From: an uncultured Rikenellaceae bacterium
Lineage (GTDB): Bacteria > Bacteroidota > Bacteroidia > Bacteroidales > Rikenellaceae
Assembly: GCA_944415565.1 (NCBI GenBank)
Contig: CALYBQ010000005.1
Coordinates: 106,061-170,060, forward strand
Reading direction: 5' to 3'
Length of the DNA stretch: 64,000 nt
Shown here: in pieces, positions 2,230 through 17,688 of the stretch
Layout: each line of letters opens with the position of its first letter
Position numbering within the stretch: position 1 is the first letter of the stretch
The notes under the pieces: generated by a model
What the model was told of the DNA's origin: nothing
What the model saw: only the letters and a program-made list of their open reading frames with translations
The model's database searches: none
Made by a program: the position numbers and the translations under genes

Positions 2230-2715
2230 TTATAAATCCAGATAGAAGAAATCGCTATCGTTATACGGATAATCGTATGCTACCGGCAACTCTTCCTTTT
2301 CCAATTTCCTGAATCCGGCTTTCTCATAAAAGTTGTGTGCCCGCTCAGTGTTTTTGGGCGTATCGAGAATTATCTTCTTAAAACCATTCTCGCGCGCAAA
2401 CTCCATAAGAACAGCATACAACCGGCTACCGAGACGATGCGGCGCACCACGATAAGGTTCGTAGACAAAAAACTTTTTCAATATGCCGATGCCATTCCCC
2501 TTGTTCATCAAACCTATGGTTCCGGCCATATTCCCATCTGCTTTCGCCACCCAGAAATTTCCTCAGCCAGCGACGTATTCTTCCCTGATGTAGAATAACT
2601 CCGGCTGGTCATCCGCACTCACCAAAGGACGTGTACCGTCGTTCTGGCAATGCAATACGAGCGCTATGATCTCGTCCGTATCCGGTTCGGTGTATTCTCC
2701 TATCTTTATCATCAT
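2230..2715 (-). pseudogene. GNAT family N-acetyltransferase interrupted by an in-frame TGA (codon 2563-2565)
   Basis: ORFs 2563..2778 and 2230..2550 are in the same frame. Minus-strand read-through gives ...FYIREEYVAG*GNFWVAKADGNMAGTIGLMNKGNGIG...YRGAPHRLGSRLYAVLMEFARENGF..., a GNAT-like fold of about 160 aa in total. The likely start is the ATG overlapping the peptidase stop (AGATGATGATAA). TGA is a genuine stop elsewhere in the window. Confidence 0.6.
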
Positions 2716-3521
2716 CTCTTCTGCGGCGCAGCTTTCTGCCCTTTCGTCTGCACAAGAAATTGCTGGTACTCCTCCCACAACGAATCCGTAGTCACCGTCT
2801 CACCGAATATCGCCTGCATGGCCTTATCGAACGACCAAGGATTCATATATATAGCCGTCTTGTTGAATTTACGCAGGAAATCGGGATCTTTCATAGTGAG
2901 CCAGTGCAGGAAAAAGCCAGTCGTCCTGTAACCGTCCATCCAGTGCCCGCCCGGACGGCGCGAACTGTAATCGAAAAATCCGTTATATGCCCTCACCGCA
3001 TCGGCAAGTCCCTCGGTGAACACCCAATACTCGTCGGCCTTACGCTCTTTCGACGCCCAGCGGTATTCTCCTGCCCCTTTCGGATGAGCCTGATAAGCAT
3101 GTGTCAATTCATGATAAAGTACACCTCGTGTCTCGTAAAGCACCTTCGACGCACCCATAGATCGCATACTGTGCTCTACCCAACGTGAGCTGTAAAAAAT
3201 ATCGACCACCGGTATTCCACCGCCTTTTGCCGATATGCCTTCCTTGTCCTCGAAGCTGTAATCTATCTTTTCGAGGCGTGGGATGCTGTCACCCGGCGCA
3301 TACAGCGTCTCCACCACCCACCTCGCATGTTGCTGTATGAAACCGGTCGGTTCCGGGATAAGGCTGTCGTATATCGCCCATCCGCGCGTATGTTCGGCTT
3401 TGTTTATAAAATTCACCTCCGGATAGACAAATCCCGGCAACTCAGGCTCGCTCCATTTCTGCCCCGCGAGCGTGAACGGAAACAGCACGACGGCCAATAA
3501 AAATCCTCTCATTATTTTCAT
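2712..3521 (-). CDS. secreted zinc metallopeptidase-like protein (HExxH; basic secretory protein / 'peptidase of plants and bacteria' type)
   Basis: 269 aa with a signal peptide (MKIMRGFLLAVVLFPFTLAG) and a HELTHAYQ motif (HExxH). Overall composition resembles the BSP (PF04450-like) family. Ends in a triple stop TGA TGA TAA. Confidence 0.55.
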   Translation of the reverse strand: MKIMRGFLLAVVLFPFTLAGQKWSEPELPGFVYPEVNFINKAEHTRGWAIYDSLIPEPTGFIQQHARWVVETLYAPGDSIPRLEKIDYSFEDKEGISAKGGGIPVVDIFYSSRWVEHSMRSMGASKVLYETRGVLYHELTHAYQAHPKGAGEYRWASKERKADEYWVFTEGLADAVRAYNGFFDYSSRRPGGHWMDGYRTTGFFLHWLTMKDPDFLRKFNKTAIYMNPWSFDKAMQAIFGETVTTDSLWEEYQQFLVQTKGQKAAPQKR

Positions 3522-3640
3522 TTCTGAACTGTATTAAATTTTGGTAACCGCAAAGATAAACAAAAAGGCAAACTATCCATCTGCCCGCGAAATTCGCCCG
3601 CCATACAGCATCCGGCCTTGCAGCGGCACAATGAAATAGC

Positions 3641-3648
3641 TATATTTG
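3641..3648 (+). promoter_or_regulatory. Bacteroidetes -7 promoter element (TAnnTTTG) upstream of dsbD. A second copy lies at 3716-3723.
   Basis: TATATTTG motif at 3641-3648 and again at 3716-3723. The Bacteroidetes sigma-A -7 consensus is TAnnTTTG. Confidence 0.35.
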
Positions 3649-3752
3649 AATAACAACAGGAGGCGTCTCGGAAATCTTTGCAAACAAGCTTGCTCCGATT
3701 TCTCTCGGCTTTCACTATATTTGTCGTTATTGAATATAAAACGCAATTACCT

Positions 3753-5891
3753 TTGAAAAAGATCATAACATCCGCCCTGCTGGCACTATGCTCCGTCGTA
3801 GCACTATTCGCAGAAGATCCTGTTTCTTGGACCTTCGACCTCACCGGAGGAGAAAACGGAGAAATAGAACTCAGGGCAACCGCCACTATCGAAAAAGATT
3901 GGCACATATACGATCCCGGCATCGGTGATGGCGGACCGTTTCCCACGACGTTGGAAATCGAAGAGATCGTCGGCGCTGAAACGATAGAAAGATTCTCCGC
4001 TGTTGATTCGAAGCGCATAGACACCTATGACGAAATCTTCGGTATGGACATCAGCTACTATGAAGGCAAGGCTACATTCGTACAGCGTTTCCGCATCACT
4101 GACCGCACGGCATTCGCGCTGAAGGGCGACATCCGCGCAAGCGCATGCAAAGAGGGCGTATGTACGCCGCCGATACCGGTCAATTTCTCATTCTCATCGA
4201 AGGATCTGCCGGCGACTTTGATCGCAGAGCAAAAGACGGGAGACACGCATGCCGCGAGCGACGACAGTACCGTCGCCCAGCCCGGCAAGTCTGAAAAGAA
4301 CGGAAGCGAAACACGGTCTTCTACGACACAACCTGTCGTCTTCTCCCAAATCAAATCCGGGGAGAAAGGGCAGAAAACAATCACGACCGCAGAAAACCCT
4401 ATCACAAGCGCCCCCACCTTTTTGGCTGAAACCATAGCGGCAAATACAAATGACGAGCCGGACCTGTGGAGACCGGTAATAGACGAACTGCGGACATTCG
4501 GTGCGGCAGGCAGCACGGCCGACAGGTCGCTCGTATGGATATTCATACTGGGATTCGGGGGAGGACTGCTCGCCCTGCTTACGCCGTGCGTGTGGCCGAT
4601 GATCCCGCTCACCGTGAGCTTCTTCCTCAAGCAAGGCAGGGACAAGAGATCGGCAGTGAAGGATGCCGTAGTTTACGGCCTATCCATCATAGTGATATAC
4701 GTCGGGCTGGGACTGGCCGTAACGGCAATATTCGGAGCCGGCGCACTCAACAGCTTGGCCACCAACGCGGTATTCAACCTCATATTCTTCGCCATGCTCG
4801 TGATTTTCGCCGTCTCGTTCTTCGGAGCGTTCGAGCTGACACTGCCGTCGCGGTGGACCAACAGGATGAACGCACAGGCCGACCGAACGAGCGGTCTCGC
4901 CAGCATATTCTTCATGGCATTCACGCTGACATTGGTCTCGTTCTCTTGCACCGGCCCGATCATCGGGACGCTTCTGGTAGACGCCGCCGGCTCGAAGGCC
5001 GTACTTGCCCCCATGACGGGCATGGCCGGATTCGCATTGGCATTGGCCATACCGTTCGCATTGTTCGCCATATTCCCCTCGTGGCTTAAAAATGCACCGC
5101 GCTCCGGCGGATGGATGAACTCAGTAAAGGTCGTTCTCGGATTCATCGAGCTGGCCCTCGCGCTGAAATTCCTCTCCGTCGCAGACCTCGCCTACGGCTG
5201 GGGAATACTCGACCGCGAAGTGTTCATAGTACTGTGGGCAGCGATAGCGCTTCTCCTCGGAGCCTACCTGCTCGGTTGGGTAAGGTTCAAAAACGACGGC
5301 GAACAAAAACACGTCTCTGTGCCGAAGATATTCCTATCGACCGTAGCGTTCTCATTCGCACTGTATATGCTGCCGGGCCTGTGGGGTGCACCGCTGAAAG
5401 CCGTAAGCGCCTTCCTGCCCCCCATGACCACACAGGATTTCAACCTTTACGACAACTCGGTACACGCCAAATTCGACGATTACGATGCCGGCATGGAGTA
5501 TGCCCGCCGCAACGGTAAACCAGTCATAATAGACTTTTCAGGGCTGGGATGCGTCAATTGTCGCGAAATGGAAGCCCGGGTATGGACCGATCCGCGCGTG
5601 AAGTCGATACTCGACAACGACTACGTACTCATAACCCTCATGGTGGACGACAGGCAACGGCTGCCGGAGACGATGGAGGTTGAAGAAAACGGGCGTATGG
5701 TGAAGCTCAAGACGGTAGGCGACAAATGGAGCTATCTCCAACGCCATAAGTTCGGGACGAGCTCCCAACCGTATTACGTTCTGTTAGATGCCGACGGCAA
5801 TCCGATAGGCCCGTCGTATGCCTACGACGAGGACATAGATAAGTACATACAATTCCTGAATACGGGGCTCGCCAATTTCAAAAACCGATAG
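3753..5891 (+). CDS. dsbD: thiol:disulfide interchange protein DsbD (protein-disulfide reductase)
   Basis: Signal peptide, then a periplasmic N-domain, a low-complexity S/T/Q-rich linker and a polytopic membrane core (LLALLTPCVWPMIPL...). The C-terminal thioredoxin domain carries GLGCVNCREME (CxxC). There is no in-frame ATG: the candidate starts are TTG at 3678 (ORF track) or TTG at 3753. The 3753 start yields a clean signal peptide (KKIITSALLALCSVVALFA). Confidence 0.8.
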   Translation: MKKIITSALLALCSVVALFAEDPVSWTFDLTGGENGEIELRATATIEKDWHIYDPGIGDGGPFPTTLEIEEIVGAETIERFSAVDSKRIDTYDEIFGMDISYYEGKATFVQRFRITDRTAFALKGDIRASACKEGVCTPPIPVNFSFSSKDLPATLIAEQKTGDTHAASDDSTVAQPGKSEKNGSETRSSTTQPVVFSQIKSGEKGQKTITTAENPITSAPTFLAETIAANTNDEPDLWRPVIDELRTFGAAGSTADRSLVWIFILGFGGGLLALLTPCVWPMIPLTVSFFLKQGRDKRSAVKDAVVYGLSIIVIYVGLGLAVTAIFGAGALNSLATNAVFNLIFFAMLVIFAVSFFGAFELTLPSRWTNRMNAQADRTSGLASIFFMAFTLTLVSFSCTGPIIGTLLVDAAGSKAVLAPMTGMAGFALALAIPFALFAIFPSWLKNAPRSGGWMNSVKVVLGFIELALALKFLSVADLAYGWGILDREVFIVLWAAIALLLGAYLLGWVRFKNDGEQKHVSVPKIFLSTVAFSFALYMLPGLWGAPLKAVSAFLPPMTTQDFNLYDNSVHAKFDDYDAGMEYARRNGKPVIIDFSGLGCVNCREMEARVWTDPRVKSILDNDYVLITLMVDDRQRLPETMEVEENGRMVKLKTVGDKWSYLQRHKFGTSSQPYYVLLDADGNPIGPSYAYDEDIDKYIQFLNTGLANFKNR

Positions 5892-5895
5892 ACGA

Positions 5896-6843
5896 TTACG
5901 AACCGGTATAAAGTTGTCCTTGATAGGCGTCCAACTCTTCGAGACGCTTATCGAGCATGGCGAGCAACTGCTCGTTACGCACGAGTCCCCAGTTAGGCCC
6001 GCTGTGGTAACGCGGCGGGGCCTCGCTCGCGAACCGCTCGACCACTATATCGGGACGCAAACGGCGCAGTATCTCTATGAACAAATCTATATACTCGTTA
6101 AGGCACCTGAAAACATACTTTCCGGGGGCGGCGGCATAATCCGTCTCCATAGTTGTCCCCTTGAATATCTGCAACTGATGGAATTTGACCGTCGTCAGCG
6201 GCAGGGCGTTTATGAATCTCGTCTGGGCGACGAGCATCTCGTCCGTTTCGCCCGGCAATCCCAATATGAAGTGTGCACCGCAATGTATGCCGCGCTCGGC
6301 AGTCTTGCCAATAGCCTCAGCGGCACATGCGAAATCGTGCCCACGATTCACTGCCCCCAGCGTCTCGTCGTAACACGACTCCACGCCGTATTCCACAGCA
6401 ACATACCGCTTCTTGGCCAACTCGGCGAAATAGTCGAGTTTCTCATCGTCGATACAATCGGGACGGGTCCCCACGATTATCCCGGCGACCTCGGGAAACG
6501 CCAAAGCCTGCCCGTAAATCTCCTTCAATTCCGAAAGCGGGGCATAAGTATTCGAGAACGATTGGAAGTAAGCGAGAAACTTGTCGGCATTACGATAACG
6601 GCGGCGATGGAACTCTATACCCTCCTCTATCTGTTTGGCGACAGAGTCGCCCCTCATGCAGTAAGAGGGGGTAAACGCCTCGTTGTTACAGAACGTGCAC
6701 CCGCCCACGCCGACCCGGCCGTCCCTGTTCGGGCAGGTAAATCCGGCGTTTATCGTGACTTTCTGGACACGCCCGCCCATCAGCTTGCGAAAATAACCCG
6801 CATAGCTGTTGAAACGACGTTCCGTGCCCCAAGGATACGACAT
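5896..6843 (-). CDS. TIGR01212-family radical SAM protein (YhcC-like)
   Basis: GFTCPNRDGRVGVGGCTFCN matches the cysteine motif of TIGR01212-type radical SAM enzymes. Start chosen at Met24 of the ORF-track protein (MSYPWG...) so that it abuts the upstream gene's stop. The ORF track gives 5896..6912. Confidence 0.7.
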   Translation of the reverse strand: MSYPWGTERRFNSYAGYFRKLMGGRVQKVTINAGFTCPNRDGRVGVGGCTFCNNEAFTPSYCMRGDSVAKQIEEGIEFHRRRYRNADKFLAYFQSFSNTYAPLSELKEIYGQALAFPEVAGIIVGTRPDCIDDEKLDYFAELAKKRYVAVEYGVESCYDETLGAVNRGHDFACAAEAIGKTAERGIHCGAHFILGLPGETDEMLVAQTRFINALPLTTVKFHQLQIFKGTTMETDYAAAPGKYVFRCLNEYIDLFIEILRRLRPDIVVERFASEAPPRYHSGPNWGLVRNEQLLAMLDKRLEELDAYQGQLYTGS

Positions 6844-6845
6844 AT

Positions 6846-7553
6846 TTATTTCGCTGAAAGGGCTTCGACAAAGCCGGGAAACAGTTTCCACAGGTGTTCG
6901 ACCTGTATCCACAGTTCGCGGGCAAGCGCCTTTTTCGATGGGTTGTCCCCACGTATCTCCGTCAGATAGGTCTCGTCAACAGGGTGCTCCGCAGCGACAA
7001 ACTCATCGAAATAGGGTTTAAAACTGCGCTTGAAGTGGTGCAACTCCCCCTCCGGCAATTTGCCTGTCCTACGGAACTCGCTCCACAACACGAGTATATC
7101 CTTATCCGGCAGCCGGTCGCTCACGTCGTTAATCACTTCATCGAAGAGATCCCACTCTTCGAGCGCAACATAAGAGTAGGCCAAAAGGGTGGAAGCGTCG
7201 AGATGGTCTTCAGGATCGAGTTCGAGCAACATCTCGAGCATGGCTGCCGACATCTCGAAATCACCGAGCAGAAAATGGTCTATGGCCGAATAATGTATCA
7301 CCAGCATGGCATCGCGGCTCTCCCGGTCCTCCCACTCCAACTCTATGTCGGTAGAGTCGGGTATAAGCTCCATAAGCTGCTGAAAAGCGGCATAGCGGAT
7401 ATTGCAGGCCTCCTCGATGTTGCCCTGCCTCTCCTTCTCCTGCGAACGTTCCAACTCGAGTCCGAAATTCACACCGATTCCGTCCGCTCCGTCCGCATAT
7501 AATATCCTGTACGTATTATCCGCAGTGGGCCTAAGCAATGCCTTTTTTCCCAT
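6846..7553 (-). CDS. hypothetical acidic cytoplasmic protein
   Basis: 235 aa, D/E-rich, with no TM segment or signal peptide. Lies between cstA and the radical SAM gene and overlaps the cstA stop by about 20 nt, suggesting co-transcription. Confidence 0.45.
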   Translation of the reverse strand: MGKKALLRPTADNTYRILYADGADGIGVNFGLELERSQEKERQGNIEEACNIRYAAFQQLMELIPDSTDIELEWEDRESRDAMLVIHYSAIDHFLLGDFEMSAAMLEMLLELDPEDHLDASTLLAYSYVALEEWDLFDEVINDVSDRLPDKDILVLWSEFRRTGKLPEGELHHFKRSFKPYFDEFVAAEHPVDETYLTEIRGDNPSKKALARELWIQVEHLWKLFPGFVEALSAK

Positions 7554-9064: not shown

Positions 9065-9137
9065 GCCGCAATAGCTCAGTTGGTAGAGCGTTTCACTCGT
9101 AATGAAGAGGTCGCGAGTTCAAGTCTCGCTTGCGGCT
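9065..9137 (+). tRNA. tRNA-Thr (anticodon CGT)
   Basis: Manual cloverleaf fold. Acceptor stem gccgcaa/ttgcggc, D-arm gctc-agttggta-gagc, anticodon stem tttca/tgaag with loop ctCGTaa, T-arm gcgag-ttcaagt-ctcgc, discriminator T. CCA is not encoded. Confidence 0.85.
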
Positions 9138-9143
9138 CAGTTT

Positions 9144-9181
9144 GCAGTAACCTGCGTAATACGCAGGTTACTGCTTTTTTT
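9144..9181 (+). terminator. rho-independent terminator after tRNA-Thr
   Basis: Perfect 14-bp stem gcagtaacctgcgt / acgcaggttactgc with loop aat, followed by TTTTTTT. Confidence 0.8.
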
Positions 9182-9247
9182 GCATAAACCATACGAACAC
9201 CGCGCAACAAACATATATCATTCATTGATTGACAACAAATGGTTTAT

Positions 9248-9255
9248 TATATTTG
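9248..9255 (+). promoter_or_regulatory. putative -7 promoter element (TATATTTG) for the islet operon
   Basis: TAnnTTTG match lying 44 nt upstream of the ATG at 9299. No clean -33 TTTG (only ATTG/TTGA nearby). Confidence 0.35.
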
Positions 9256-9298
9256 TGTGTACAACACAAACAATTTGCAATAGTAAAGATTTAAACCA

Positions 9299-9568
9299 AT
9301 GGCGGTATTTTTAGTCTCGGGTCTCATTCTCGCTGTTTTCGTTTCGGCTAACACCGACTCAGCAAAAGATGTTTTGCTATCCCAAGTCGAAGCTATCGCT
9401 AAATGCGAAGCAACGGTAACATGCTCCGGTGAGACAAAAATCTCATGCGAGCGCAAAAAAGACGGCACATGTTCATCTAACAATGATGAAAAAGGCGCAG
9501 GGTATGTCTTATGCTCAGGTGGAGGAGACCCTGATGTCAAAAAGAACTGTAGCTTTTTTAATTCTTAA
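9299..9568 (+). CDS. small secreted cysteine-rich protein, NVEALA-like (PF14055-type) peptide
   Basis: 89 aa with an N-terminal hydrophobic signal/anchor (MAVFLVSGLILAVFVSA). It carries the motif LSQVEAIAKCE, resembling the NVEALA signature. The predicted mature part has six Cys, with Gly/Asp/Lys-rich spacers. AT-rich codon usage. Confidence 0.55.
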   Translation: MAVFLVSGLILAVFVSANTDSAKDVLLSQVEAIAKCEATVTCSGETKISCERKKDGTCSSNNDEKGAGYVLCSGGGDPDVKKNCSFFNS

Positions 9569-9578
9569 ACCATTTATT

Positions 9579-10628
9579 ATGTATATTTTCAGAAAGCTTC
9601 AAAATCTGAAGCGCATCGTTATACCATGTCTATTATTAACAATAACAGCATTCACTTCATGCAAAACCGATAAATTCGATGAGCATATAATTTATCTTAC
9701 TTCAGACAAAGAAATAGACCAATTATCGGATTCCACATTCTTTAGTTCAACAAAATGCATGGTTGAATATGATGGATATATATATGCATCATTATCTCAA
9801 CGGATGCAAATTATCTGTATGGACAAGAACCTGCAATTAAAAAAAACAATCGGCAAACATGGTCGTGGACCTCAAGAGTTCATATATATAGACTGTTTTT
9901 TCATATACGACAGTATATTATGGGTCGGAAACACAGGACAACTGGCACTTATGAAATTTACTCTTGACGGCAACTTTATCAGCACGGAACACAAAACGAA
10001 AAAAAAATACTCTTTAAATGAGCGCTTTGCTGTAGATGATTCTAAAATCTATTTTTCAAAACCGAATATCGACAAAAAAACGTCCTTAGCCGTTATTGAT
10101 TTAAATAAACCAAAGGATAACAATTATAAGGAATTTGGAGCCTTTACCGATTTCGGTCAATCGTATAAAAATAAAATACAAAACAAAAGAGATGTTTTCA
10201 TTACAGACGATTATATCATAACCGTACCAGAAAGCATTCCGGTAATTGAAAAATATGACAAAAATTCTTTAGAACTAATAGAGACATACGACCTCCTGAC
10301 CATCCCCGTCATAGCCGAGGCACTTGAAGCAACTCTCAACCACCCTGATATCGCCGATCCTATCACTACATATTCCATAGCAAGGGATGCCTATCTGCAT
10401 AACGGCATATTATACATAATGCTTCCAACACCAACCATAAAAATGAAAGACGGTCACAAAGAGTACACAGGCATTATGGCTTTCGACATAAAAGACAATA
10501 TCAAATATTTACACCGTTATCCATTCAATGAAGACATGAATATTTTCTGTGTAACCGACGAGTATATTTTTACGGCACCGCTTACAGGCGGAGTCATTAA
10601 AAGATTCCCGCTAAACCCGGAACAATAA
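9579..10628 (+). CDS. lipoprotein, probable 6-bladed beta-propeller (NHL/TolB-like; BF3164/DUF5128-like)
   Basis: Start at the ATG giving the lipobox MYIFRKLQNLKRIVIPCLLLTITAFTSC. The ORF track starts further upstream at 9429, overlapping the peptide gene. Contains GKHGRGPQEF, an NHL/propeller-like motif. About 349 aa, lying 10 nt after the peptide gene. Confidence 0.55.
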   Translation: MYIFRKLQNLKRIVIPCLLLTITAFTSCKTDKFDEHIIYLTSDKEIDQLSDSTFFSSTKCMVEYDGYIYASLSQRMQIICMDKNLQLKKTIGKHGRGPQEFIYIDCFFIYDSILWVGNTGQLALMKFTLDGNFISTEHKTKKKYSLNERFAVDDSKIYFSKPNIDKKTSLAVIDLNKPKDNNYKEFGAFTDFGQSYKNKIQNKRDVFITDDYIITVPESIPVIEKYDKNSLELIETYDLLTIPVIAEALEATLNHPDIADPITTYSIARDAYLHNGILYIMLPTPTIKMKDGHKEYTGIMAFDIKDNIKYLHRYPFNEDMNIFCVTDEYIFTAPLTGGVIKRFPLNPEQ

Positions 10629-10629
10629 T

Positions 10630-11172
10630 ATGAGACTGTGCTTATTAATAATAACCATTGCCACTATAATATGTTCATACGGCTGTAAAAATATAATTGA
10701 CGGCAACAATCGAGGAACGTCACAAACGACAAAAGCCGTACCGACCAAAAGAGACTCTTTAGCCCGCGAAAAAGACCAACGGTTACTGAGCACACTATAC
10801 AACAAGGAGGCCGCTGTTTTCAATACGATCATACCTGATCTGAAAAATGAAAACAGGAACATTATCCTCGTGGTCAGTAAATTCGATTGCGTAACCTGTG
10901 TCGAGGCCGGATTCGATATCATAAGGCAGATAAAAAAGATCAACCGGGCAGCACATACCTACGTCGTCGGTGTAACAAAAGAGGTTTACATCCCCGAACA
11001 GTACAAATACACTGTATACGAAGATATCGACCAAAATGTACAAACCGCGCTAAATTATGCCCCCACACCCGTCATCCTCATATTGAACGGCAATCGCATA
11101 ATCGACCTATATAGTCCGTATGACTCTAAATCGTTATTCGCCACGGATTTCATCAATGAACATTCATATTAA
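10630..11172 (+). CDS. lipoprotein with thioredoxin-like CxxC motif (TlpA/redoxin-like)
   Basis: Lipobox LLIITIATIICSYGC. ILVVSKFDCVTCVEAGFDII is a beta-strand, CxxC, helix arrangement as in thioredoxin-fold oxidoreductases. Starts 1 nt after the upstream stop, so translationally coupled. Confidence 0.5.
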   Translation: MRLCLLIITIATIICSYGCKNIIDGNNRGTSQTTKAVPTKRDSLAREKDQRLLSTLYNKEAAVFNTIIPDLKNENRNIILVVSKFDCVTCVEAGFDIIRQIKKINRAAHTYVVGVTKEVYIPEQYKYTVYEDIDQNVQTALNYAPTPVILILNGNRIIDLYSPYDSKSLFATDFINEHSY

Positions 11173-11220
11173 CGGCAGCGATAATAATTTGATAATATAC
11201 CATTAACACTTACATCAATA

Positions 11221-11249
11221 CCCCCGGACTGTTTAACTCCGGGGGTTTT
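11221..11249 (+). terminator. rho-independent terminator closing the islet operon
   Basis: Stem cccccgga / tccggggg with a 9-nt loop, followed by TTTT. Confidence 0.6.
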
Positions 11250-11272
11250 CACTGCTCGGACAATAACAACAA

Positions 11273-11845
11273 TTATCTTCCACCATTCCACTCGTAGCGC
11301 TCCCCATCAATGCCGAGCAACGAAAGGATGCGTTCCACGACCGTCATGCAGAGCTGCTCAATGTCGGCAGGGTGCGAATAAAACGACGGCGACGCCGGAA
11401 GCACCACAGCCCCGCATTCGGAAAGCGCCGTCATATTTCGGAGATGTATGGTCCCGTATGGAGTTTCGCGGGCGACCAATATCAGACGCCGACGCTCTTT
11501 GAGCATGACGTCGGCGGCACGGGTTATCAGATTATCGGATACGCAGTTAGCTATGCGCCCCAGCGTTCCCATAGAACACGGCACGATCACCATAGAATCA
11601 TAGGCTGCTGAGCCGGATGCCGGTGCGGCGAACAGATCGTCATTATCGAAGTACCGCACACGCGGATCATCGCCGCCCGACGGGATATTTTGCTTTTCGT
11701 ACTCGGCCACCGCCAACCCGTTTGTACTGAATACGACGGCCACCTCGGACACCGCGCCTGAACGCAAAAGACACTCCACAAGCAGGCGGGCATATATCGA
11801 GCCGCTCGCTCCCGTAACACCCACTACTATCCTGCGTCCTGTCAT
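11273..11845 (-). CDS. ubiX: UbiX-family flavin prenyltransferase
   Basis: 190 aa. MTGRRIVVGVTGASGSIYARLL... and ...CSMGTLGRIANCVSDNLITRAADVMLKERRRLILVARETP are typical of UbiX/Pad1. Confidence 0.85.
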   Translation of the reverse strand: MTGRRIVVGVTGASGSIYARLLVECLLRSGAVSEVAVVFSTNGLAVAEYEKQNIPSGGDDPRVRYFDNDDLFAAPASGSAAYDSMVIVPCSMGTLGRIANCVSDNLITRAADVMLKERRRLILVARETPYGTIHLRNMTALSECGAVVLPASPSFYSHPADIEQLCMTVVERILSLLGIDGERYEWNGGR

Positions 11846-15733: not shown

Positions 15734-16065
15734 CCTGTGACCAATGCGTAACACTCTCCCCCAACGCCCCCGCAACAGGCCATTTTATACAAATCTGGTC
15801 GCAGAATTGAACGTTTTGACCAATTTTCACATTTATTCACAAAAAGAATTTGTTTTACATTGAGAATGTTTATATTTGCGTTTAGAGCATTGGACTTTTA
15901 AGGGAACATTACGACGTCGATTTACATCCGATCAAGGGGAACGGCGTGGTTGTGTTCCATATTAGTGGGTATAAAAAACCTGCACCCATTTTTCCACTGC
16001 CGAAATTAACACAACAGGGAAACTCAGAAACGAAAACCAAGAATAACTTAAAACCAATAACCACG

Positions 16066-17688
16066 ATGAAAAAACTTTTACCCTTGTTACTCTTAGGTGT
16101 GACTGCGATGTTCTTCTCGTGCGAGTCCTATGACAAGAATGAAGGTAAAGCCAATGCGCCGCAAGCCTCATTCCTCGTCGCACAGCAGACACTCCCGTTC
16201 ATGGGCGAGATCACTGTAAAAGTAGTCCTCGACAAACCGGCAGAGCAAGACTTAACTATACCTTTCACTGTTGTAGGTAGCGCAACAGAAAATAGGCATT
16301 ATGAATTTATCGGCCTGCCGACAACCCCGGACGGAGAGGAAACGATACACGAACTCACATTCTTGCGAGGTGAAACGGAAACCTCTTTCGGATTGAAACA
16401 CATGATGGTCAATGCAGATCCTGTTTTGGCACAAATTGCACTTGACCGAAGCGAGGACGGCAGCTATTCGCTGAGTGACAAAAAGCAAATCCTTATCAGG
16501 ATCGACCAGAGGGAAAACGTACTGGTAAGTTTCACCCAGAATGAATACCTTACACGCGAATTCTCTAATATTACATTGAATTTTACTCTTACCGGAGAAG
16601 TGACGGGAACGGAATATACCGCACCTAACGACTTAAACGTACAAATGACTGTCGTTCCAATATCTACGTCCATATACCAACCACAGATCACCAATGTCCC
16701 CAGCAATGCTTATAAATGGCTCGACGGCAGCACTGCGACAGTAGAGTTGGGAGAAAACACGGACTCGCTCGCATTAGGTATCAGCTACATCAACCAGACA
16801 AGCCCTAACGCGCCTAATGATCCGGATCCAATCTTTACCAGAGGAGACGATTGGCCGGAAGGATACCACTATCGTTTAGGGGTCACATTTACAGGATTGT
16901 CCAACGGCCTTATATTGGGCGATATAGACACTACATATATATATGTAAAAAGGTTGGAAGATCCGATTGAAGAGATACTTATGCAGCATCATTGGATCAA
17001 CCCGACATGGGGCTTGGATCTGTACGAAGCCCTTTCTAAAAAGGAAGCCCTGTTGAAGAAACTCGACCAAACAGGGGATACCAGTTGGGGAGATATGCCG
17101 CGAAACAACTACTATGAGGATGAAATATGGTTCGAAAAAGTTGAAGGAACCGGAGAGATTGATCCGGAAACAGGAGAAATAGACCATAAATACTACATCC
17201 ACATCGAAACAGCATATCCTAATGATGATATAAACAGGCGAAGCGACTTCGTGAAATTCTTCAAACCCGGCCCGATGGTCAACAGGGACGAACAGAACCG
17301 TAAATACGAGAACTTGGAACAACGTAACCACCCGCTCGGATCAGCAGCATACGGTTTGAAGATGAGGGTTCCGGCCAATAAAAAATTCAGTTGGAAAGAG
17401 ACCAACTTAGTGCCTCCGGGACTTGATACTGTCAACATCTACAAAGAAGGTGTGGAACCGGTAGATGGCAGCAACGTAATCATCATACCTTCGAGTGTAA
17501 TGGGCGATAACGAGGAATCGTGGATAGATATATGTATCCTGCAAGGTTCGTGGGAAAGGACACCATATAATTTCATGTATGTCTTTGAAAATTGGGAGGA
17601 CCCTGACAATCCGGGAAACCAGCCGTACTTAGGCTCAAAGAATCCTCGAAACTTCGACATATGGTTCAGGTTGTATAAGAAACAATAA
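16066..17688 (+). CDS. hypothetical surface lipoprotein
   Basis: Start at MKKLLPLLLLGVTAMFFSCES (lipobox), inside ORF-track 15946..17688. 540 aa, Thr/Asn/Asp-rich, with no catalytic motif recognised. Confidence 0.55.
   Translation: MKKLLPLLLLGVTAMFFSCESYDKNEGKANAPQASFLVAQQTLPFMGEITVKVVLDKPAEQDLTIPFTVVGSATENRHYEFIGLPTTPDGEETIHELTFLRGETETSFGLKHMMVNADPVLAQIALDRSEDGSYSLSDKKQILIRIDQRENVLVSFTQNEYLTREFSNITLNFTLTGEVTGTEYTAPNDLNVQMTVVPISTSIYQPQITNVPSNAYKWLDGSTATVELGENTDSLALGISYINQTSPNAPNDPDPIFTRGDDWPEGYHYRLGVTFTGLSNGLILGDIDTTYIYVKRLEDPIEEILMQHHWINPTWGLDLYEALSKKEALLKKLDQTGDTSWGDMPRNNYYEDEIWFEKVEGTGEIDPETGEIDHKYYIHIETAYPNDDINRRSDFVKFFKPGPMVNRDEQNRKYENLEQRNHPLGSAAYGLKMRVPANKKFSWKETNLVPPGLDTVNIYKEGVEPVDGSNVIIIPSSVMGDNEESWIDICILQGSWERTPYNFMYVFENWEDPDNPGNQPYLGSKNPRNFDIWFRLYKKQ

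Follow-up and report, generated by a model that had tools for sequence, protein, structure and literature searches.

The window analyzed, a stretch of 64,000 nucleotides (nt) from an uncultured Rikenellaceae bacterium (contig CALYBQ010000005.1), harbors a cassette of three genes that begins with the gene for a small cysteine-rich peptide (9299-9568, +). This gene has an ATG start and encodes, stop codon included in the coordinates, a pre-peptide of 89 amino acids (aa). The second gene (9579-10628, +) starts 10 nt past the stop of the peptide gene and encodes a 349-aa six-bladed beta-propeller lipoprotein with the lipobox ...AFTS-C28. The third gene (10630-11172, +), starting 1 nt past the propeller stop, encodes a 180-aa lipoprotein with the lipobox SYG-C19 and a predicted thioredoxin-like core. 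With intergenic gaps of 10 nt and 1 nt, respectively, the peptide, propeller and redox genes form a tight predicted three-gene operon, peptide first.

An in-frame TAA at 9284-9286, upstream of the peptide ATG, rules out a longer N-terminus. The translation is identical to the text of an earlier note on this DNA (the original prediction) and reads MAVFLVSGLILAVFVSA, followed by NTDSAKDVLLSQVEAIAKCEATVTC... Residues 1-17 (MAVFLVSGLILAVFVSA; 9299-9349, +) represent a predicted Sec signal peptide with cleavage after VSA. The call is a heuristic one, based on the hydrophobic region, the -3/-1 rule and the family conservation of S-A-N. Residues 3-14 are hydrophobic (mean Kyte-Doolittle 2.9; core of 12-13 residues), and V-S-A (residues 15-17) satisfies what the -3/-1 rule asks of a signal peptidase I site. 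S-A-N is kept in six of nine relatives, and an S-A-N or A-S-A-N-like site is present in most. Export via Sec with cleavage of the signal after VSA is predicted, and a cut at this site would yield 72 residues with a computed mass of 7.5 kDa and an isoelectric point of 4.9. An uncleaved membrane anchor was considered and dropped, the hydrophobic region of 13 residues being too short.

The motif QVEAIA, which resembles NVEALA, occupies residues 29-34 (9383-9400, +); its residues E31 and A32 do not vary within the family. It precedes a Cys-rich domain (residues 36-84; 9404-9550, +) that was delimited by alignment and is predicted to fold into five beta strands. The six invariant cysteines stand at positions 36, 42, 50, 58, 72 and 84 and are separated by 5, 7, 7, 13 and 11 residues. 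An AlphaFold2 model from eight sequences reached a predicted local distance difference test (pLDDT) score of 81-84 over about residues 35-85 and contains five short beta strands, each with or adjoining one cysteine. Three disulfides may be formed. A metal-binding Cys cluster was rejected, since CxxC knuckles are missing and the cysteines lie on adjacent predicted strands. None of the solved structures matches the Cys-rich domain, and comparison of the peptide with the PDB, by sequence and by profile, gave no match.

The peptide gene is very rare. A word-indexed search of 5.8 billion clusters returned one cluster only, 96% identical to the peptide. An exhaustive phmmer search of 1.84 billion representatives identified five further clusters with 38-55% identity, and a profile search added the peptide of locus L012 only. 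The family thus comprises seven clusters, with no annotated relative among them. Overall, the relatives are 36-55% identical. In an alignment of nine sequences, the six more remote of which share 37-52% identity with the window peptide, M1, E31, A32, C36, E37 and the other five cysteines are invariant, and the loops between the cysteines vary freely. PADLOC and PHROGs yielded nothing credible, NCBIfam searches with the nine relatives and the partner proteins gave noise only, and tblastn against plasmids found no match.

The original prediction of a real gene with a signal-type N-terminus and six cysteines was borne out: all six cysteines are kept among the homologues, and this conservation had been named as the check on a spurious open reading frame (ORF). 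A spurious ORF, arisen by chance in an intergenic or leader region before the propeller gene, is effectively refuted. In its favor, the exact sequence was found only in Logan and ENA sources and is missing from those proteins of the collection that derive from NCBI, among which the redox and Asd neighbors from the same 352-kb contig are present; the ORF has no Pfam or NCBIfam match; and at locus L010 (5606-5869), one gene caller left it uncalled. Most likely, the NCBI record lacks an annotation of this small gene. Against a spurious ORF stand homologues with invariant cysteines and 36-55% identity, located before homologous propellers at no fewer than seven divergent loci, as well as the confident fold prediction and a profile match to the peptide of locus L017 (expectation value, E, 1.4e-8). 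An antisense ORF (9247-9540) and a GTG-started overlapping frame of the next gene were set aside because the conservation sits in the + frame of the peptide.

The propeller lipoprotein scores 19.9 bits against DUF5128 (PF17170), below the cut-off of 22.9, and 19.1 bits against TolB_like, also below the cut-off. Its homologue at L012 (43% identical) reaches 24.2 bits and passes the DUF5128 cut-off. For the proteins P0002, P0005, P0007 and P0008, PF17170 is a precomputed assignment. The lipobox residues S27 and C28 are invariant. A profile of seven propeller sequences matched NHL repeats in the PDB weakly (E 0.01), and the single sequence had no match there.

The 180-aa lipoprotein carries the CxxC active-site motif CVTC (10888-10899, +). 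The CxxC is kept in all relatives as CVSC, CNSC or CISC. In a three-sequence alignment (A2), C19, the block F-D-C-x-x-C-V-E-A-G and P-T-P are invariant; at loci L021 and L022, the CxxC spacing alone is kept and the flanking residues vary. In a structural model, the context NIILVVSKFD-CVTC-VEAGFDIIRQ joins a strand (77-83) to a helix (88-104), so that the CxxC would be placed as in a thioredoxin fold, after a strand and at the start of a helix. P-T-P, a candidate for the cis-Pro loop, lies just before the model strands 148-153 and 156-162, and the modeled secondary structure follows the order beta-alpha-beta...alpha-beta-beta, compared with beta-alpha-beta-alpha-beta-beta-alpha in a complete thioredoxin fold. 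A Foldseek search of the PDB returned thioredoxins or thioredoxin-fold designs in 49 of the top 50 matches (E from 6e-3, probabilities 0.8-0.99). A thioredoxin-fold CxxC lipoprotein is considered likely, not proven.

The gene order was surveyed by tblastn and by ORF reading of fetched contigs. The succession of peptide, propeller and redox gene was found in the window and in L001 and L002, which carry the same allele (L002 ends within the propeller gene), and also in L010, L012/L013, L018 and L022 (= L015). L019 has the same order with a truncated redox gene. L011 harbors two tandem peptide genes in front of propeller and redox gene, and in L021 the peptide gene is cut by the contig end and propeller and redox genes follow. 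L016 ends after peptide and propeller, L014 just past the peptide. In L017, the peptide gene is followed by a 32%-identical propeller gene. The order peptide to propeller was present at every locus where it could be checked, and the CxxC lipoprotein came next wherever the contig reached that far. The propeller and redoxin-type lipoproteins expected downstream by the original prediction are therefore found in the window and wherever contigs are long enough. The flanking genes vary by taxon and include, among others, Wzy_C/TPR and transglutaminase-like genes, Rho and IPP transferase genes, or an acyltransferase gene. Differing flanks around a constant trio indicate that the three genes move as a unit. 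Redox and propeller profiles detected no relative in 185,579 GTDB species genomes. In JGI metagenomes, the propeller profile found one distant locus, L017, and the redox profile found none. The module is accessory and patchily distributed.

Several details of these loci were recorded beside the survey. The tandem peptide genes of L011 (273-873; P0011 and P0012) are divergent and precede a single propeller/redox pair; a second, canonical DUF5128 lipoprotein gene is located just downstream on the opposite strand (2659-3942, -). In L012, the cassette lies between genes for a Wzy_C/O-antigen-ligase-like TPR protein (174-2051) and a large transglutaminase-core-like protein (4105-6060, -). Contigs with the peptide (L014, L015, L016 and L003-L009) often end in or beside the cassette, which suggests that assemblies break at a low-GC or strain-variable islet.

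The original prediction had linked QVEAIA to the NVEALA family (PF14055). This link stood in part. The window peptide had no match in Pfam or NCBIfam even at E<=10, which for this peptide is formally the refuting outcome named in the original prediction, and neither of its two closest alleles, P0001 and that of L010, matched PF14055 at that level. For the six more distant relatives, PF14055 was the best or only credible match in Pfam (24,736 families): P0011 scored 17.8 bits, P0009 and P0013 17.3 bits each, P0010 16.0 bits, P0012 13.7 bits and the L012 peptide 12.7 bits. The bridging peptide of L017, which carries ENEALANNE and eight cysteines and is encoded upstream of the distant propeller, scored 24.2 bits (E 2.7e-5). 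All relatives, L017 included, remain below the gathering cut-off of 27 bits. A comparison of the family profile (A1) with the L017 peptide by hhalign gave a probability of 95.5% (E 1.4e-8) over 75 columns. L017 itself is sub-threshold, and the homology chain is therefore suggestive, not proof. That one family out of 24,736 recurs for independent sequences seems unlikely to be due to chance. Q-V-E-A-I-A shares four of six positions with N-V-E-A-L-A; the relatives have EVEALA, QVEALG, QTEALA or GIEALT, and the N was never seen in the family. In length and layout, the 89-aa peptide with hydrophobic residues 3-14 before the motif at 29-34 resembles NVEALA proteins, for which the Pfam description gives about 67-83 aa. 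From this sequence evidence, the peptide is likely a remote six-Cys relative of NVEALA; it is not a member by the Pfam threshold. A degenerate DNA pattern for NVEALA..E produced 64 matches in viral contigs, all of them chance occurrences inside unrelated ORFs.

The peptides resemble NVEALA as small proteins of about 90 aa from Bacteroidales-type metagenomes, with a hydrophobic N-terminus and then a V-E-A-(L/I)-A block. In the present family and in L017, the gene lies directly upstream of that for a DUF5128-type six-bladed propeller, a propeller neighborhood as the original prediction had assumed for NVEALA. The peptides described here differ from NVEALA in QVEAIA or EVEALA, followed immediately by an invariant C-E and a fixed six-Cys domain, and in the CxxC lipoprotein, which is always added in the present operon. 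The comparison was made via the PF14055 model and L017. NVEALA is itself uncharacterized; in the full-text literature, no paper mentioning NVEALA was found, and none relevant to DUF5128.

The relatives align to PF14055 over their N-terminal part up to and including the motif (about model positions 3-62). What PF14055 models, and what is thus conserved, are the 62 N-terminal positions with the motif, and the Cys-rich tails are wholly different between the peptide family and L017. A constant leader joined to a variable core recalls a precursor of a ribosomally synthesized and post-translationally modified peptide (RiPP). In such a precursor, the N-terminal part through VEA(I/L)A would be the leader, the propeller would recognize it and act as a processing or modifying enzyme, and a modified core would be released. 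Six-bladed NHL propellers include peptide-acting enzymes, e.g. peptidyl-alpha-hydroxyglycine alpha-amidating lyase. This explanation is considered improbable: the N-terminus has the features of a normal Sec signal, namely a short hydrophobic stretch and a site of the AXA type, the conserved module contains no radical-SAM, YcaO, lanthipeptide or peptidase-transporter gene, and the six-Cys scaffold with its confident fold suits a small folded protein better. A radical-SAM gene at 5896-6912 belongs to the conserved core flank and lies outside the islet that carries the cassette.

This low-GC islet of 2.1 kb (9139-11272) was delimited by its composition profile. Its GC content is 37.9% versus 52.9% in the left and 51.6% in the right flank. 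A tRNA-Thr (CGT) gene (9065-9138, +; ARAGORN; Rfam 72 bits) forms the left boundary, and a search of the whole window against Rfam found only the two tRNAs. A hairpin with perfect 15-nt arms followed by T7 (9144-9174, +), the predicted terminator of the tRNA gene, separates the tRNA from the operon. A promoter-like site found by a consensus scan (TTGATT, 17 nt, TATATT; 9225-9255, +) belongs to a class whose count is not above the shuffled expectation. TATATTTG (9248-9255), read from the sequence, overlaps this site. The -7 consensus of Bacteroidetes is TAnnTTTG; TATATTTG fits it, and the promoter is a putative one. Between the operon and a convergent ubiX-like flavoprotein gene (11273-11845, -), a GC-rich hairpin (CCCCCGGA...TCCGGGGG then TTTT; 11217-11249) is likely to act as a two-way terminator. 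At the ends of the islet, neither flanking direct repeats nor a tRNA-fragment duplication were found.

In the conserved core flank, 3.4 kb upstream of the cassette, a gene for a DsbD homologue with DsbD_N, DsbD_TM and a thioredoxin-like domain is located (3678-5891, +). Its product may be a redox partner of periplasmic thioredoxin-like proteins and is a possible electron source if the redox lipoprotein acts as an isomerase or reductase; its position may also be a coincidence. Two window ORFs, 6846-7553 (-; 235 aa) and 15946-17688 (+; 580 aa), have no Pfam match at E<=0.001; the latter has a lipoprotein-like N-terminus.

The preferred reading, to which a probability of about 50% is assigned, is a horizontally acquired three-gene operon for a Sec-exported disulfide peptide, a dedicated redox lipoprotein and a binding propeller; the horizontal acquisition is part of the reading at these odds. 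The pre-peptide would be exported through Sec, and signal peptidase I would remove the 17-residue signal after VSA, leaving a mildly acidic protein of 72 residues, whose destination may be the periplasm, the cell surface or the surroundings of the cell. The mature peptide would consist of a short N-terminal LLSxVEA(I/L)A-x-CE segment and a compact all-beta domain with three disulfides. The CxxC lipoprotein would serve as a dedicated oxidase or isomerase for these disulfides. The propeller lipoprotein of the NHL/DUF5128 type would be the binding partner of the peptide, either as a platform offering it to the redox lipoprotein or as carrier, receptor, protector or neutralizer of the finished peptide.

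Among known systems, NVEALA is the closest family, the bacteroidetocin locus the closest analogue in peptide maturation, and NHLRC2/SOQ1 the closest analogue of the lipoprotein pair. Bacteroidetocins (class IIf) are likewise small secreted Cys peptides of Bacteroidales with an accessory, patchy distribution (PMC6671954, PMC8546649). Their gene clusters include a dedicated thiol oxidoreductase, thought to form disulfides, as is proposed here for the CxxC lipoprotein. Its deletion attenuates toxin activity, and Bacteroides has been reported to be without general disulfide-forming machinery (PMC6671954). The leader of bacteroidetocins is of the double-glycine type and 15 aa long, their core has 42 aa and four cysteines, and a C39 peptidase/ABC transporter and a transmembrane protein accompany them. 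The present system differs by a Sec-type signal, a predicted 72-aa six-Cys product and a propeller lipoprotein instead of a transporter. A double-glycine leader is missing, no transporter gene occurs in or beside the module at any locus, and no sequence similarity to bacteroidetocins was detected.

NHLRC2 fuses a thioredoxin-like and a six-bladed NHL domain and occurs from bacteria to humans; a cleft between the two domains contains its Cys motif and is the proposed partner-binding site (PMC6107167). Human NHLRC2 and the lumenal domains of plant SOQ1 (PMC6107167, bioRxiv 10.1101/2021.03.16.435614) pair a thioredoxin-fold CxxC-type unit with a six-bladed NHL-type propeller, as the cassette probably does. 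The motif CC(I/V)NC of NHLRC2 resembles the C(V/I/N)(T/S)C found here. The cassette encodes the two units as distinct lipoproteins and in reverse order, with the propeller gene leading. The likeness to NHLRC2 is architectural only, as no sequence homology was detected and the NHL call is weak (E 0.01). The methylamine dehydrogenase set offers a looser, purely functional analogy. MauA is a small disulfide-rich subunit exported by Sec or Tat, MauB a propeller, and MauD a thioredoxin-like helper for the MauA disulfides. The MauB propeller is seven-bladed, and MauA depends on MauG and MauE and contains a cofactor derived from tryptophan. A cofactor subunit like that of methylamine dehydrogenase was rejected for the peptide, because a conserved Trp is missing from the family and such accessory genes are missing from the module.

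Between the window and L010, the surrounding 13 kb are 99-100% identical and the peptide gene 91-97%. In its C-terminal half (9900-10600, +), the propeller gene is hypervariable with 50-88% identity, and this half looks like a recombination patch or an allele swap; in the window, no paralogue of any cassette gene was found as donor for this segment. The redox protein is 100% identical, with one synonymous difference in its gene. The peptide gene has no synonymous and eight non-synonymous differences, cstA 15 and none, and ubiX four and one, respectively (Fisher's test, p = 3e-6). Three of the eight peptide differences cluster in the C-terminal tail and may represent a single event. For the whole cassette, the ratio of synonymous to non-synonymous differences is 8:13 versus 15:4 in the flanks (p = 0.012). 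The strain pattern, as far as sequence comparison can tell, fits both diversifying selection on the peptide-propeller pair with frequent loss and plain relaxed constraint in this host.

Changes confined to amino acids in the peptide and a diverged propeller half beside an unchanged redox protein are also what a bacteriocin-like or kin-discrimination module would leave, in which the peptide is an antagonistic or signaling effector and the propeller the matching immunity protein or receptor that diversifies with it between strains. Disulfide-rich toxins typically keep their cysteines and vary in the loops, as this family does; the accessory, low-GC and patchy character of the module fits as well, and Bacteroidales are known to make Cys-containing peptide toxins that have thiol oxidoreductases dedicated to them. 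On the other side, the module includes no gene for a transporter, for lysis or for a C39 peptidase, the predicted mature peptide has an acidic and not a cationic composition, and PADLOC, PHROGs and bacteriocin families gave no match. Relaxed constraint explains the non-synonymous excess equally well, loss-of-function alleles are common, and three of the eight differences may stem from one event. This explanation is possible, if rather doubtful. A still undescribed type of Sec-dependent system for disulfide-locked peptides in gut Bacteroidales is regarded as unlikely; in it, a mini-protein with a new fold would be matured by its own redox lipoprotein and specifically recognized by the NHL-type propeller, and peptide and propeller would co-diversify between strains as a strain-specific antagonism/immunity or recognition pair. 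If true, it would also provide a first functional handle on the much larger group of uncharacterized NVEALA and DUF5128 genes.

The physical contact of peptide and propeller is a proposal, as is any biological role in antagonism, signaling or otherwise; the toxin, signal or bacteriocin suggested in the original prediction is one plausible reading. A number of observations weigh against the proposed operon of disulfide peptide, redox helper and binding propeller. The window peptide is without the positively charged N-terminus (MKK...) present in relatives, and AlphaFold2 modeled its N-terminal 30 residues, including the motif region, at low confidence. The thioredoxin call rests on motifs and a single-sequence model with a mean pLDDT of only 49; the redox lipoprotein has no match in Pfam, in NCBIfam or, by sequence or profile, in the PDB, and hhalign of its profile against TrxA from E. 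coli gave a probability of 0.1%. Further points come from the alleles of other samples. The propeller gene contains an A8 homopolymer (9839-9846, +), which is A7 in a second clade of alleles (L009, L018, L019 and L020), resulting in a propeller frameshift. For L009 and L018, A7 was seen in the sequence itself; for L019 and L020, it was deduced from blastn gaps. Gene callers report a 225-aa fragment (P0003) for it, and it could be an inherited pseudogene or a case of slipped-strand phase variation. In L019, a 2-nt deletion (window 10831-10832) cuts the redox lipoprotein to 68 aa (P0026), so that this one strain combines the deletion with the propeller frameshift and a C58Y peptide. C58Y, by which the fourth cysteine is lost, occurs in two peptide alleles (P0016, P0019). 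P0018 is without one T in a T-run at codons 3-5; its ATG frame ends after four codons, and an upstream ORF is fused in. The peptide shows no synonymous excess, and in this host it may thus be dispensable or evolve under relaxed constraint.

These independent loss alleles within the species (A7 in four contigs, the L019 deletion, C58Y in two alleles and the P0018 frameshift) raise the question of a decaying accessory remnant, i.e. a horizontally acquired cassette that is now neutral or being lost in this species, with a window copy that is intact by chance and does little. The shifted substitution ratio of the cassette relative to its flanks and the loss of the charged signal-peptide N-terminus in this lineage point in the same direction. 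The window, L001/L002 and L010 have intact copies of all three genes, and the redox protein is 100% identical in L010, the only examined strain whose propeller allele differs. Across genera, the scaffold shows strict conservation, from which it follows that the module is functional at least in general. Decay as the whole explanation is therefore held to be quite improbable.

The cassette is real, rare and mechanistically suggestive, and its function is inferred only. Its parts suggest a division of labor in which the peptide is the substrate, the CxxC lipoprotein the redox helper and the propeller the binding platform. The peptide gene is of a kind that is easily missed by annotation. If this division of labor is true, Bacteroidales would possess a second route to disulfide-bonded secreted peptides, applying a Sec signal and a lipoprotein oxidoreductase, in contrast to the double-glycine leader and ABC transporter. 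The operon could also point to the role of the wider NVEALA/DUF5128 pairs. In the gut, it might further take part in competition or recognition between strains, an idea prompted by the swapped propeller half, the amino-acid-only change of the peptide and the recurrent frameshifts.

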